This document shows, in pieces, positions 1 to 3,174 of a stretch of 3,174 nucleotides of DNA; within the stretch, counting starts at the first letter, position 1; each line of letters begins with the position of its first letter. Source of the stretch: Escherichia coli (lineage in GTDB: Bacteria; Pseudomonadota; Gammaproteobacteria; Enterobacterales; Enterobacteriaceae). The translations under genes were made by a program, and so were the position numbers. A model generated the notes under the pieces. That model had not been told where the DNA came from, ran no database searches, and worked only from the letters and a program-made list of their open reading frames with translations. The stretch lies in the NCBI RefSeq assembly GCF_024298765.1, contig NZ_CP101217.1; one strand, given 5' to 3'.

Positions 1-164
1 CGACGCGCCCCGTGATCGATGGCCTTGGCTCCGTCCGGCATATCGAGAGCGGCAAACTACCCGTCCCTTCACTGGGAGGGGTGAGTTGTTGCCGTTCCCT
101 CCGACCTTCCACCATCCAGCATATCGCACGATCCCATGAGCACCGCAACAACTGATAACTCCAG

Positions 165-266
165 AGCAAAAAAAAAAAAAGGATCTGCATCATGTGAGAG
201 TGATCCCACCGCTCGCCGCAGCCCCAGCGACCGAACGTAGTGAGCGAGTGGGCGAGGAAGCGGAAG
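165..266 (+). other. ColE1/pMB1-like origin-proximal segment (A13 tract plus conserved downstream block)
   Basis: A13 homopolymer at 168-180. Block 208-266 ACCGCTCGCCGCAGCC...GTGAGCGAG...GCGAGGAAGCGGAAG closely resembles the pBR322/pUC segment ACCGCTCGCCGCAGCCGAACGACCGAGCGCAGCGAGTCAGTGAGCGAGGAAGCGGAAG (recalled), which lies just downstream of the ColE1-type replication origin on the RNAII-sense strand, in the region of the primosome assembly sites. Confidence 0.35.
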
Positions 267-379
267 TGAACCGGAAACCACATTGAGCACGTACGCACCT
301 ATGCCAGATCCGCGCGTAGCGCGTCGCGAAATCGAAAACATTGAACACCGGCAGGCAAACGCACCACCACGCAGCGGAA

Positions 380-775
380 TTAATGATGATCTGGGCTTGT
401 TTCAAGATCGAGCCTGATTGCCTTAAGTTTCTGTAATATATTGTCTTTTGGGTATCTCAGTTCGCCTGTTTTTGTGTCCACTAGTCCGGCCTCGATCAGT
501 AACCCCGCCGCAAGAAACAGGCGGTGATTGCGTTCCCGTCGTTGTGTTTTCCCCTCCATCCGTTTTTGGTTGGCCTGTTTGCGTGCGTTCTCCTGTGCCT
601 GTAGCTCGTTTTTTTCTGCGGTTGCCAGGACGTGGAGTAGTTTGCGCTCCTGTTCTGTTAGTCCGGCTTCGTTATCGAGCAGGTCAATGATCTGCCTCTG
701 TCGTGCGGTCTGTTCTCCGAGCTTCCTGATAAAGCCGATTCGTTTCTTCAACCAGTCGATGTTGCTGATGCGCAT
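380..775 (-). CDS. mobC: MobC-like relaxosome accessory protein (131 aa)
   Basis: Minus-strand ORF, ATG at 775-773, stop TAA (complement of 380-382). AGGGAG Shine-Dalgarno on the minus strand about 10 nt upstream of the ATG. Divergent from the relaxase gene across the oriT region, as in IncQ mobC-oriT-mobA. The motif KTQRRERNHRLFLAAGLLIEAGL resembles the RSF1010 MobC motif as recalled (ERKNETRRKVLVGAMILAKV). The six-frame track extends the ORF to a GTG at 895 (171 aa), which would run through the oriT palindrome; the ATG at 775 with its RBS is preferred. Confidence 0.7.
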   Translation of the reverse strand: MRISNIDWLKKRIGFIRKLGEQTARQRQIIDLLDNEAGLTEQERKLLHVLATAEKNELQAQENARKQANQKRMEGKTQRRERNHRLFLAAGLLIEAGLVDTKTGELRYPKDNILQKLKAIRLDLETSPDHH

Positions 776-799
776 GTTTGGGATGCTCCCTGGTGTTTT

Positions 800-850
800 T
801 TGCGGTGTGTTGGGGTTGTGCAGTATATCGCTTGCGGTGGGTGGGTGCAG
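800..850. repeat. GT-rich direct repeats TTGCGGTG-N-GTGCAG (two copies) in the mobC-mobA intergenic region
   Basis: TTGCGGTG at 800-807 and 832-839, each followed by GTGCAG (818-823 and 845-850), 32-bp period. The plus strand here is strongly G+T skewed. Lies between the mobC start (775) and oriT. Confidence 0.4.
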
Positions 851-882
851 GGGGGTATCTTCCGTGCTAATTCGTAAAATTA

Positions 883-940
883 GCAGGAAGCGCACTTATA
901 TGTTTCTTCGCCGTTGGCTCAGAAACATGTGCGCTCCTGC
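883..940. other. oriT: origin of transfer (oriT), MOBQ/RSF1010-like, with candidate nic sites
   Basis: Inner inverted repeat ATGTTTCT (900-907) / AGAAACAT (921-928), with GCC/GGC pairing inside the spacer; compare RSF1010 arms CCAGTTTCTC/GAGAAACCGG (recalled). Outer imperfect inverted repeat GCAGGAAGCGCAC (883-895) / GTGCGCTCCTGC (929-940). Minus strand reads AGAAACAT-ATAAGTGCG|CTTCC (plus coordinates 898-886), matching the RSF1010 nic core TAAGTGCG|CCCT 8 of 8. Plus strand reads AGAAACAT-GTGCG|CTCCTGC (929-940), a shorter match. An additional small hairpin TGCTAATT/AATTAGCA lies at 865-885. Confidence 0.7.
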
Positions 941-954
941 GGAGGGCTAACACC

Positions 955-1908
955 GTGGCAACCTATCACCTCAATGTAAAATTTGGCGGCAAGGGACAGG
1001 CCGGAAACCATGCCGATTACATCGAACGCAAAGGCGAGTACGAGAAACGAAAAGATCTGGAATACTCAGAGCACGGGAATATGCCAGGCTGGGCGCGAGA
1101 TAATCCCTCCCATTTCTGGCAAGCGGCTGATCAGTTTGAACGTGCGAATGGTTCGACTTATCGGGAGATCGAAATCGCCTTGCCGCGTGAACTGACACCG
1201 GATCAGCGCATTGAACTGGTGCAGGATTTTGTGCGTCAGGTAGCTGGAGAACGGCACGCCTATAGCTTTGCCATTCACAATCCAAAAGCGAGCATTGACG
1301 GAGGGGAACAGCCTCATGCGCATATCATGATGAGCCAGCGTATTAACGATGGTATGGAACGTTCGCCGGAACAGTATTTCCGGCGTTATAACGCCAAGAA
1401 TCCCGAACGGGGAGGCGCAAAAAAAGATTCAGGCAATCTGACACCGACTCAGCAAAAAGAGCAATTGCGGACGTTACGGGCGAGCTGGTCAGCGTTACAG
1501 AACGAGCATTTAGCGCGTCATGGTCACAGGGTGCGCGTTGACCATCGCTCACTGGAAGAACGCGGAATTAAACGCACGCCAGAACGGCATTTCGGATTTG
1601 CCGCCTCATCACGGCTTGATCATGCGCAGCGCCGCGAAATCCTGCAAAACCGAGCGCAGCCGCTCGAACATTTTCTAGAGAAAGCGCATTCGGTTCGCCA
1701 TCAATTTGATGCACAAGTTCAGCAAAAAGAGTTAGTTAAAACGCTTTTACAGGACGTCGCACGGGAGCGAGGGCACGCGCTTACGGCAAGAATAAATAAA
1801 ACAGGTGAAGTTGAATTTGAACGTGCGCCAACGCGGACGCGGAGTAACACGCGAGGGCACGGCATGGGCATTCGTGACAACTCACGCGGGTACGACTACG
1901 AACGTTAA
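955..1908 (+). CDS. mobA: MobA relaxase, MOBQ family (317 aa, relaxase domain only)
   Basis: GTG start at 955 preceded by GGAGGG (941-946, 8-nt spacer); stop TAA 1906-1908. N-terminus MATYHLNVKF...HADYIERKGEY parallels RSF1010 MobA MAIYHL...ADYIQREGKY (recalled). Conserved motifs: ADYI (candidate catalytic Tyr22), REIEIALP, the His cluster H108...PH121AH123IMMSQRIND (candidate metal-binding triad), RYNAKNPERGGAKK, and VDHRSLEERGIKR. Confidence 0.9.
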   Translation: MATYHLNVKFGGKGQAGNHADYIERKGEYEKRKDLEYSEHGNMPGWARDNPSHFWQAADQFERANGSTYREIEIALPRELTPDQRIELVQDFVRQVAGERHAYSFAIHNPKASIDGGEQPHAHIMMSQRINDGMERSPEQYFRRYNAKNPERGGAKKDSGNLTPTQQKEQLRTLRASWSALQNEHLARHGHRVRVDHRSLEERGIKRTPERHFGFAASSRLDHAQRREILQNRAQPLEHFLEKAHSVRHQFDAQVQQKELVKTLLQDVARERGHALTARINKTGEVEFERAPTRTRSNTRGHGMGIRDNSRGYDYER

Positions 1909-1919
1909 AAGGGGACTGT

Positions 1920-2450
1920 ATGGCGAGTACAGAAGAGGGGTTGCTCACGCTCTTGTTGTCCGTTGAGCATTTGAAAAACACTGCGATAGAACAACAGAAA
2001 GCGGTTGCAGACACGCTGGCGGTCGCAAGGGAAACACTGCGGGGGTATCGGGATATTTCTGACAGTGTTGTAAAACAGGTTAGCGATGAAGTCAGAAAAG
2101 GGGTACAGAAAACGGACATTGCGGGGCTGATGGGTGAGCGCATGACCCAGGATTTTCAGCGTCTTGAAGAGACTGTGGCAAAGATGAGAGCCAACGCGGA
2201 GGCGCTTAACAAGGACATTGCGACAATTCATCACAATGTTGTTAAAGAATACAACACGCTCAATAAATACAGTCTGAAATGGTTTATCGGTGTTACGGTC
2301 AGTTTTCTGGTCATGTTCTCGTTGCTTGGCTGGTTTACCAAAACGTTGATCGACAGGAACTACACCGCGACGGAGGTCGTGTATCAGAAAATTGTTGATA
2401 TTGAAAAGAAACTGGACAAACCAGCAACAGGGAAGAGCCGGAAAAACTGA
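1920..2450 (+). CDS. mobilization-associated membrane protein, possibly MobB-like (176 aa; coiled-coil N-terminus, single C-terminal TM helix)
   Basis: ATG at 1920 lies 11 nt after the mobA stop, with AGGGGA RBS-like sequence at 1908-1913 (GGGGA centred about 8 nt upstream), implying operon coupling. Residues ~1-118 are charged and heptad-like (E/K/Q/A-rich). Hydrophobic segment WFIGVTVSFLVMFSLLGWF (aa 121-139, nt 2280-2336) is followed by a short basic tail. The antisense 200-aa ORF (1905-2507) has junk-like composition. Functional assignment is by position and by analogy with the membrane-associated MobB of IncQ plasmids, not by recognised sequence identity. Confidence 0.7.
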   Translation: MASTEEGLLTLLLSVEHLKNTAIEQQKAVADTLAVARETLRGYRDISDSVVKQVSDEVRKGVQKTDIAGLMGERMTQDFQRLEETVAKMRANAEALNKDIATIHHNVVKEYNTLNKYSLKWFIGVTVSFLVMFSLLGWFTKTLIDRNYTATEVVYQKIVDIEKKLDKPATGKSRKN

Positions 2451-2475
2451 CGCGCTTCGCTTGTCCAACGCCTCA

Positions 2476-2502
2476 CGGGACGCGAAAAAATTCCGCGTCC
2501 CG
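2476..2502 (+). terminator. candidate hairpin terminator downstream of the mobA operon
   Basis: 9-bp GC-rich stem CGGGACGCG (2476-2484) / CGCGTCCCG (2494-2502) with a 9-nt A-rich loop, 26 nt after the ORF stop. The downstream T-tract is interrupted (TTCACCGTTTTCT), so intrinsic-terminator assignment is weak; it could instead be a structured single-strand site. Confidence 0.35.
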
Positions 2503-2703
2503 TTCACCGTTTTCTGATGAGAAAGTTTGCCGTTTTGACCCGTTCGGTGCTCAGATTTGGCGAAATTGATTCCGAATCACTTTTGTGAATAGTTATGCAA
2601 GCCCCTGGAAACGTTTCTGACGCGTTTTTTGAGGTAGGGGTGGGGGAAAGCATGGTTTTTTGATGTTTTGAGCGTAAAAGCGTGAAAAATCGCGTTATTG
2701 TGC

Positions 2704-2732
2704 TTGCGATCTTTCGTCAGGGAGCGTAGAAC
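2704..2732 (+). promoter_or_regulatory. candidate sigma70 promoter for a plus-strand primer-like transcript (RNAII analogue)
   Basis: TTGCGA (2704-2709), 17-nt spacer, TAGAAC (2727-2732). It sits immediately upstream of an A-run plus hairpin (2734-2757), similar to how the ColE1 RNAII 5' end overlaps the RNAI terminator. Hexamers are only 4 of 6 matches to consensus. Confidence 0.2.
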
Positions 2733-2733
2733 G

Positions 2734-2757
2734 AAAAAAGCCCGCCGTTAGGCGAGC
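2734..2757 (-). terminator. rho-independent terminator, minus strand
   Basis: Minus-strand RNA would read GCUCGCC-UAAC-GGCGGGC followed by UUUUUU. 7-bp stem with one G-U wobble, which is a C-A mismatch in the plus-strand transcript, so the structure is strand-specific. The U6 tract corresponds to plus A2734-2739. Confidence 0.5.
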
Positions 2758-2860
2758 TTCTTCGGGTTCATTGAGGTTTTCGACCTCCTCAATGTTCCTG
2801 TGGAGTCTGTTGCGGCGACAACGGAAACCAGTTCATTCAGTTTGCATGAACCTTCTGTAT
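2734..2860 (-). ncRNA. candidate antisense regulatory RNA (RNAI-like), boundaries approximate
   Basis: Upstream of the minus-strand terminator (on that strand) are two more hairpins: CATTGAGG/CCTCAATG (2769-2794, 8-bp stem) and GTTCAT/ATGAAC (2831-2851, 6-bp stem). Three stem-loops ending in a terminator within ~120 nt resembles ColE1-type RNAI architecture. No confident promoter found; the 5' end is not defined. Overlapping ORFs in this region look non-coding. Confidence 0.25.
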
Positions 2861-3174
2861 TCTTCAAGCATTACCGACCGCACAGCCTCCCCAGAATCCC
2901 GAAAAAATCCTGTTTTTGCAGATGATTGCGTGTTTGCAAAGACCGTTTGCGGTTGGGGGAGCTGTGACGACGGCAACCGCACGCGTGAGAGTTCCGCTAC
3001 CGGCGCAGAGAGTTTCATCGACAGCGGACACCTGATGAGTTGCCACAAAAACCGTATGTAGCGCGGCTAGATTGGTTGAGTTAGACCTTGGCGGCAGTTC
3101 CCGGTATGTGGTGGCGTGACGGGTGAGATGGTGCGGCGAAGACGCATACGTCACGCAGGCGCGGGTTCTTCCAC

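Follow-up and report, generated by a model that had tools for sequence, protein, structure and literature searches.

A predicted RNAI/RNAII control locus of a divergent ColE1-type replicon in a 3174-bp enterobacterial plasmid

The sequence analysed here, called the window throughout, is an entire circular enterobacterial plasmid of 3174 bp from Escherichia coli (NZ_CP101217.1). Neither its open reading frames (ORFs) nor its annotation includes a Rep gene, and the genes are limited to mobA, a hypothetical ORF and a mobC-like ORF. About 1.1 kb is non-coding (2451..3174 plus 1..379), and the replicon must sit there. This part contains hairpins that a first-pass annotation had taken for an antisense RNA resembling RNAI of ColE1-type replicons. 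The region is very probably the copy-number control locus (RNAI/RNAII) of a ColE1-type, RNA-primed, Rep-independent replicon, as judged from its sequence and that of its relatives. It consists of the following elements.

2832..2734, minus strand: predicted RNAI antisense RNA of ~99 nucleotides (nt) (Rfam RF00106 alignment, fold and clade model R1)
2867..2839, minus strand: predicted RNAI promoter, −35 TTGAAG (2867..2862), 17-nt spacer, −10 CAAACT (2844..2839) (conservation and ColE1 likeness)
2829..2802, minus strand: RNAI stem-loop I, with a GG/CC base, an internal loop, a 6-pair upper stem with one C-A mismatch and the loop UCGCCG (2818..2813) (fold)
2798..2765, minus strand: RNAI stem-loop II, with an 8-bp core (2794..2787/2776..2769), a 10-nt loop (2786..2777) and outer GG/CC pairs (fold)
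2763..2734, minus strand: RNAI stem-loop III, an intrinsic terminator with a GC-rich hairpin (2757..2740), an A-tract/U-tract extension and U6 (sequence)
2704..2732, plus strand: predicted RNAII promoter, TTGCGA (2704-2709), 17-nt spacer, TAGAAC (2727-2732), start predicted at ~2740 (sequence and conservation)
2740..3174, plus strand: first part of the predicted RNAII preprimer, which crosses the circle junction to window ~100 (fold and conservation)
1..100, plus strand: 3′ part of RNAII and predicted origin, with the G-rich run GGGAGGGG at 74-81 (conservation and ColE1 ruler)
191..304, plus strand: block resembling a primosome assembly site (pas) (nhmmer and BLAST homology to the region downstream of the ColE1 origin)

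The hairpin at 2740-2757 (GCCCGCC-GTTA-GGCGAGC) is GC-rich and has seven pairs. The third of these pairs reads as a C-A mismatch in the plus strand but as a U-G wobble in the minus strand, and a U6 tract (2739..2734) follows the minus-strand hairpin only, the plus-strand copy being followed by CTTCTTCGGG; the element is a good terminator on the minus strand alone, as the first-pass annotation had it. The second stem-loop that it described on this strand (2769-2794) contains a perfect 8-bp stem (2769-2776/2787-2794; CATTGAGG/CCTCAATG) with a 10-nt loop. The third, 2831-2851, does exist as a 6-bp stem (GTTCAT/ATGAAC at 2831-2836/2846-2851), but was rejected as a part of RNAI, since it holds the −10 box of the promoter and lies almost wholly upstream of the predicted start. 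The true first stem-loop is 2829..2802, which had been overlooked and which appears in the minimum free energy fold of the 141-nt minus-strand stretch (z = −2.66). In relatives of the pSL476_3 type, a substitution in the 2831-2851 stem creates a C-A mismatch in the minus sense and a G-U wobble in the plus sense, and therefore this hairpin, if it matters, would act in RNAII; the stem is not kept in the relative L010.

The refined RNA of 101 nt (2834..2734) forms three stem-loops and ends in U6, with a folding energy of −39 kcal/mol and z = −4.09. The complementary 5′ end of the plus-strand RNA gives the three stem-loops in mirror image, with z = −4.0. It is highly improbable that the hairpins arose by chance in non-coding spacer DNA, or that they are a functionless relic of an adjacent cer-like site. 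Short hairpins are common and a cer-like accessory region does adjoin the RNAII promoter, but the minus-strand fold is unusually stable (z = −4.1, with none of 200 shuffles as stable), positions 2745-2835 are among the best-conserved stretches of the replicon, and the RNAI models match reciprocally, as described below.

No confident promoter had been assigned to the antisense RNA, yet one is found at 2867..2839 as TTGAAG-17-CAAACT. Its −35 hexamer is invariant in 8 of 8 aligned relatives, and its −10 hexamer reads CAAACT or CACACT. The corresponding promoter of ColE1 is TTGAAG-18-TACACT-6-A(+1), which has an identical −35 and a related −10. Because this ColE1 geometry was applied to the window, RNAI is predicted to start at 2830-2834 (~2832); its 3′ end would lie within the U-tract 2739..2734. 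At the sequence level, the predicted RNAI is thus preceded by a promoter of ColE1 geometry on the strand opposite to RNAII; in RNAI of the ColE1 type, such a promoter sets a start about 100-110 nt downstream of that of RNAII. The plus-strand promoter proposed for RNAII, TTGCGA-17-TAGAAC at 2704-2732, is present and conserved in relatives, in which GTAGAACG is invariant and the −35 reads TTGCGA or TTGCTT, and its geometry is that of the ColE1 RNAII promoter (TTGAGA-17-TAATCT-7-G). The RNAI terminator abuts the predicted RNAII start at ~2740, in line with the proposal that the terminator overlaps the RNAII 5′ end; in ColE1-type replicons, too, the 3′ end of RNAI lies opposite the RNAII start.

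Since the plus strand folds equally well (z = −4.0) and a generic scan found neither promoter, the hairpins could instead act only as 5′ structure of RNAII, the minus-strand terminator merely shielding the replicon from read-in and no regulatory antisense RNA being involved. We regard this as improbable. Only the minus strand has the U-tract and the wobble, and relatives keep TTGAAG-17-CA(A/C)ACT at the same distance from stem-loop I as in ColE1. In addition, RNAI models match both ways on the minus strand, relatives encode Rop, which acts on RNAI-RNAII complexes, and variation is focused on the loops, as predicted for an antisense specificity determinant.

The RNAs of ColE1, pMB1, ColA, CloDF13 and pECO29 are ~100 nt long (about 100-110 nt for the type), begin with a single-stranded 5′ tail and have three stem-loops, of which the third is the terminator, as predicted in the window. 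The Rfam RNAI model RF00106 aligns over its full length (model 1-102) at 2836..2731 on the minus strand, which is the expected strand and place, with 19.7 bits, below its gathering threshold of 47 bits, an operational cut-off and not a biological feature. The E-value is 1.6 over 4227 families, and ~4e-4 for a single family named beforehand; the controls ColE1, ColA, CloDF13 and pECO29 score 69.5-82.8 bits. The reverse comparison employed a covariance model, R1, that was built from 15 distinct clade sequences only and was searched against the four reference plasmids with filters off; its E-values are rough because the calibration was shortened. The best R1 match falls on the Rfam-defined RNAI locus and strand, full-length, in CloDF13 (8e-4), ColA (4e-3), ColE1 (8e-3) and pECO29 (0.12), with an unrelated match in ColE1 nearly tying with the RNAI locus (17.3 vs 17.2 bits).

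The first-pass annotation had judged the primary sequence unlike ColE1 RNAI. A faint resemblance exists in the R1 alignments, in which the base of stem-loop I shares UGGUnUCnG...CAG...CC (UGGUuUCcG...CAGacuCC in the window vs UGGUaUCuG...CAGuuaCC in ColE1) and the 3′ end shares UUUUUCGU. From these sequence comparisons, the resemblance to ColE1-type RNAI is real but distant. The antisense RNA that had been proposed stands on these matches together with the absence of Rep, the presence of rop in relatives, the pas distance and the pattern of loop variation.

PLSDB contains 178 plasmids with the RNAI region (84-100% identity), and of 5426 complete E. coli genomes 142 carry it (~2.6%; 144 records); the clade also occurs in Salmonella, Klebsiella, Shigella and Citrobacter. 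The module to which the region belongs spans window ~2582 across the junction to ~314 (~0.9-1.0 kb). It is 89-91% identical in the 3.37-kb pSL476_3-type plasmids and in one 5.06-kb plasmid, and 77-78% identical in plasmids of 1.15-1.55 kb. A metagenome scan returned 27 loci, of which 4 are chance matches, and revealed no clade member more divergent than those in PLSDB. A pattern scan of genome contigs returned seven loci, of which one is a contaminant contig identical to the pSL476_3 type and the other six, from unrelated phyla, are taken for chance matches. The contaminant (L045; NZ_POUA01000830.1, 519 bp) is a low-coverage contig in an assembly of the actinomycete Spongiactinospora and is almost certainly of enterobacterial plasmid origin, its RNAI region being identical to that type. 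One E. coli record, NZ_CP019265.1 (54,741 bp), contains 22 copies of the RNAI region, which a concatemer or an artefact of assembly would most likely explain, and several records of ~6-9 kb with two to three copies (e.g. NZ_CP032882.1 and AP027796.1, ~6.5 kb) may be dimers or co-integrates of clade members.

Among 15 distinct RNAI sequences, metagenome contigs included, variation is concentrated in the loops: 17 of the 22 hairpin-loop columns vary, compared with 13 of the 87 other columns (Fisher p = 4.6e-8). Loop I occurs in 11 versions, loop II in 6 and loop III in 5. The stems are nearly invariant, stem II fully so; 97% of cells are paired, and 25 of the 31 pairs never vary. This loop-focused variation is the signature expected of an antisense specificity or incompatibility determinant. 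Pairing between RNAI and RNAII of ColE1 plasmids begins with contacts between loops, and diversified loops give new compatible origins (PMC9458437). The 3.37-kb pSL476_3-type plasmids (which carry MbeABCD and in some cases rop) and the gene-less 1.15-1.55-kb plasmids of E. coli and Salmonella share with the window the module at 77-91% identity, the RNAI stems and the promoters, but differ from it in loop I, and in pSL476_3 also in loops II and III. Loop I reads CCGCAAA in L007 and UGGAUCU in pSL476_3. All three loops of the window differ from those of ColE1, ColA, CloDF13 and pECO29, and therefore an incompatibility specificity distinct from the classical groups is plausible.

In two relatives, PGAP annotates a minus-strand coding sequence for a 108-aa "hypothetical protein" that covers the RNAI gene together with the 5′ region of RNAII (L007, 1272-1598; L052, 581-907), so that the region might be protein-coding. 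The equivalent frame of the window is broken into pieces of 39 aa and 71 aa in different frames, the similarity hops between frames in L005 and L010, and the variation falls in RNA loops with no codon pattern. Because the frame is not conserved, the annotated protein is probably a mis-annotation, and we give a coding function hardly any credence.

Nor is a reading frame kept across the module as a whole in the 77%-identical relatives. Circular plasmids of 1146 bp and 1177 bp consist almost wholly of this module, and three independent complete genomes contain the 1177-bp form. Replication of the module thus seems to require no plasmid protein, and these natural mini-plasmids suggest that the module is sufficient for replication. 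The window shares the lack of an encoded Rep protein with ColE1-type replicons. Rop acts on RNAI-RNAII complexes; its gene is absent from the window but is present in L007 and L013, whose modules are 89-91% identical; there it has the ColE1 layout, on the strand opposite to RNAII and ~1 kb beyond the RNAII start.

The same observations bear on a second kind of antisense RNA, that of ColE2, R1 or pT181, which would block the translation or elongation of a rep mRNA and not the maturation of a primer. The mob module of the window does occur on plasmids with a ColE2-type Rep, and ColE2 plasmids too have an RNA named RNAI (PMC6856555). Such a mechanism is nevertheless very unlikely here, as the plasmid has no Rep gene and the replicon no conserved frame, the gene-less 1.15-kb plasmids are nearly all module, and both structure and sequence match ColE1-type RNAI.

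The layout around the predicted origin is also that of ColE1-type replicons, with the RNAII promoter upstream (about 500-600 nt before the origin in this type) and a pas-like block downstream. We take the block at 191-304 to be the primosome assembly site, which in ColE1 directly follows the origin. With a profile of the module, nhmmer detects it in ColE1 (E = 7e-21), pECO29 (7e-23), ColA (1.5e-13) and CloDF13 (4.5e-9), in the same orientation and always downstream of RNAII, and BLAST aligns it with 84% identity to ColE1 1308-1364. The RNAII start and the pas anchor ACCGCTCGCCGCAG are 642 nt apart in the window vs 667, ~589, ~651 and ~680 nt in the references, so that the window falls within the 589-680 nt of the ColE1-type replicons. 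This 115-nt block matches more than 5000 PLSDB plasmids. The replicon type Col(MG828), given to the relative L011, was rejected for the clade: the pMG828-1 reference shares only the pas-like block, in opposite orientation, and not the RNAI region. Because this block is the only stretch in common, it is most likely what earns L011 its type.

The ColE1 origin (A-run 1193-1197) is preceded by a G6 run at 13-17 nt and followed by the pas anchor at 111 nt. Applying this ruler places the origin of the window at ~97, just after the G-rich run at 74-81, and the switch from RNA to DNA is predicted at about 95-100. A G-rich run before the origin is a feature of ColE1-type replicons, and the run at 74-81 is conserved in L005 and L010, where it is longer. 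A second, invariant G5 run is located at 2955-2959 within a conserved block (2948-3007), as ColE1 has a G run in mid-RNAII. The window differs from ColE1-type replicons in that it lacks the origin motif GGAAAAACG and has a conserved A13 run between pas and the predicted origin. This run (168-180, plus strand) has at least 12 A in every clade member, the gene-less 1.15-kb plasmids included, and could be an alternative RNA-DNA switch site.

A cer-like region adjoins the other end of the replicon. By nhmmer (E = 8.6e-13), 2584-2697 shows homology to the accessory sequences of a cer-like site in pECO29, a plasmid that in BLAST and nhmmer comparisons shares this block with the window besides the pas block. 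An ARG-box-like sequence, TGAATAGTTATGCAA at 2586-2600, matches the ColE1 cer region at 13 of 15 positions. The place expected for the XerCD core (within 2584-2735) is occupied by the RNAII promoter; TGTGCTTGCGA resembles a XerC arm (7 of 11 positions agree), but a XerD half-site could not be recognised, so that a functional cer site beside the RNAII promoter is not supported.

By analogy with ColE1, these elements would work as follows. Host RNA polymerase would make the preprimer RNAII from ~2740, using the plus-strand promoter at 2704-2732, and RNAII would run ~530 nt across the circle junction to the origin near ~95-100. At this site RNAII would enter a persistent hybrid with the DNA; RNase H would cut it, and DNA polymerase I would extend it as the leading-strand primer. 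The minus-strand promoter at 2867..2839 would constitutively yield the ~99-nt RNAI (2832..2734), which would fold into three stem-loops and stop at its own terminator (stem-loop III and U6) directly opposite the RNAII start. The loops of RNAI would kiss the complementary loops of nascent RNAII, and the resulting RNAI-RNAII duplex would refold RNAII so that no primer forms. The concentration of RNAI would track the plasmid copy number and would thereby set it. The loop sequences, loop I above all, would decide cross-inhibition between plasmids, that is, incompatibility.

A generic terminator scan did not list the 2740-2757 terminator, presumably because the stem extension pairs 2758-2763 with 2734-2739 and leaves no free T run. 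Several observations weigh against the ColE1-type assignment. Both promoters are poor matches to the consensus (CAAACT agrees at 3 of 6 positions, and TAGAAC lacks the final T), and neither was reported by the generic promoter scan. Loop II has 10 nt and not about 7, and the predicted 5′ tail of RNAI is 3-5 nt vs 9 nt in ColE1; the three stem-loops and terminal U6 of 2834..2734 otherwise have the ColE1-type form. The RF00106 score is well below 47 bits, and the relatives L005 and L007 reach 24.2 and 24.0 bits. Although the stems are conserved, both partners change in only 2 of the 31 pairs; these belong to the terminator stem and stay paired (A-U to C-G and A-U to G-C). Stems I and II never covary. 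Two pairs of stem I are broken by a C-A mismatch, in 4 and 7 of the 15 sequences, and RNAalifold did not recover stem I from the clade alignment. Covariation neither proves nor disproves the fold, because the clade is too uniform. The origin position has two candidates, ~95-100 and the A13 run at 168-180. BLAST and nhmmer found no similarity of the RNAII body and origin to ColE1, only the pas block matching, and both published "universal" ColE1 ori primer sites are absent from the window. The missing homology in the RNAII body and origin shows a divergent lineage and does not exclude the ColE1 mechanism.

A bolder version of the ColE1-type assignment, possible but doubtful, is that the clade forms a distinct, uncatalogued RNA-primed lineage in which loop I, with 11 alleles observed, diversifies as a "compatibility barcode" and the remainder of the RNA stays fixed. 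Its primer maturation may differ from that of ColE1, because there is no ColE1-like origin motif, the A13 run lies beside pas and the RNAII promoter occupies the place of the XerCD core.

The remainder of the plasmid carries mobilization genes.

955-1908, plus strand: MobA/MobL relaxase gene (annotation/ORF)
1920-2450, plus strand: hypothetical protein gene (annotation/ORF)
380 to about 777, minus strand: mobC-like ORF, divergent from mobA (ORF)

MOB-suite/PLSDB typing assigns the plasmid relaxase MOBQ and no replicon type. At full length, the window is at least 99.9% identical to pLHC5-1-3k (NZ_CP084293.1; Citrobacter werkmanii) and pTB508 (Salmonella), and it is 99% identical to 3172-bp Salmonella plasmids. 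Within the 211-bp RNAI region, pLHC5-1-3k differs from the window by one base, at 2816 in loop I (UCGCCG in the window vs UCACCG), whereas pTB508 agrees with the window at this position. The pSL476_3-type plasmids differ from the window in having MOBP Mbe genes, in place of MOBQ mobA/mobC without rop; pSL476_3 itself is an NC_ RefSeq record that presumably dates from about 2008.

The mob backbone (window 209-2629) is 98.3% identical to that of 3885-bp plasmids typed Col156, which have a Rep gene, and MobA and the hypothetical protein have the same protein accessions in the window and in the 3885-bp Col156-typed plasmid. Only 2630..208 of the window differs from these plasmids. A common mob backbone with a different replicon thus identifies the window as the product of a replicon swap; in the sequence comparison, the two junctions fall within the cer-like region and where the pas block begins. 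Directly after the 1920-2450 ORF, a perfect 10-bp inverted repeat (2475-2484 with 2494-2503) is followed by a T-rich stretch and is probably the terminator of this ORF. Gene-less 1.5-kb plasmids that are "mobilizable" according to MOB-suite share an 82-bp stretch (2465-2546) with the window at 97.6% identity. Positions 778-954 form the intergenic region of the divergent mobC-like and mobA genes. In MOBQ4 plasmids, the origin of transfer (oriT) is placed between divergent mobC and mobA, and these plasmids share with the window this gene arrangement and the downstream hypothetical gene (PMC6856555). The replicons described for them are Rep_3 and ColE2 only, whereas that of the window is RNA-primed and ColE1-like, and no paper joining MOBQ4 to a ColE1-like replicon was found in the searchable literature.

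The mechanism is textbook, and the replicon is a divergent ColE1-type lineage that standard RNA-family and plasmid catalogues have missed. In the searchable literature, we found neither a description of this replicon nor a text match to its sequence. Ten clade accessions, pSL476_3 included, are absent from the 1,035-plasmid table of the largest ColE1 census, which lists the ColRNAI, Col440 and Col(pHAD28) types (PMC8683028). The practical value lies in annotation and typing, the biology being unsurprising: if the clade were added to RNAI/ColE1 models, a class of small enterobacterial plasmids that now lack a type could be typed. In addition, the window combines a mobA/mobC module resembling that of MOBQ4 plasmids with a third type of replicon. 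Finally, the 11 natural versions of loop I on an otherwise constant RNA constitute a ready set for asking how few loop changes give ColE1-type compatibility.

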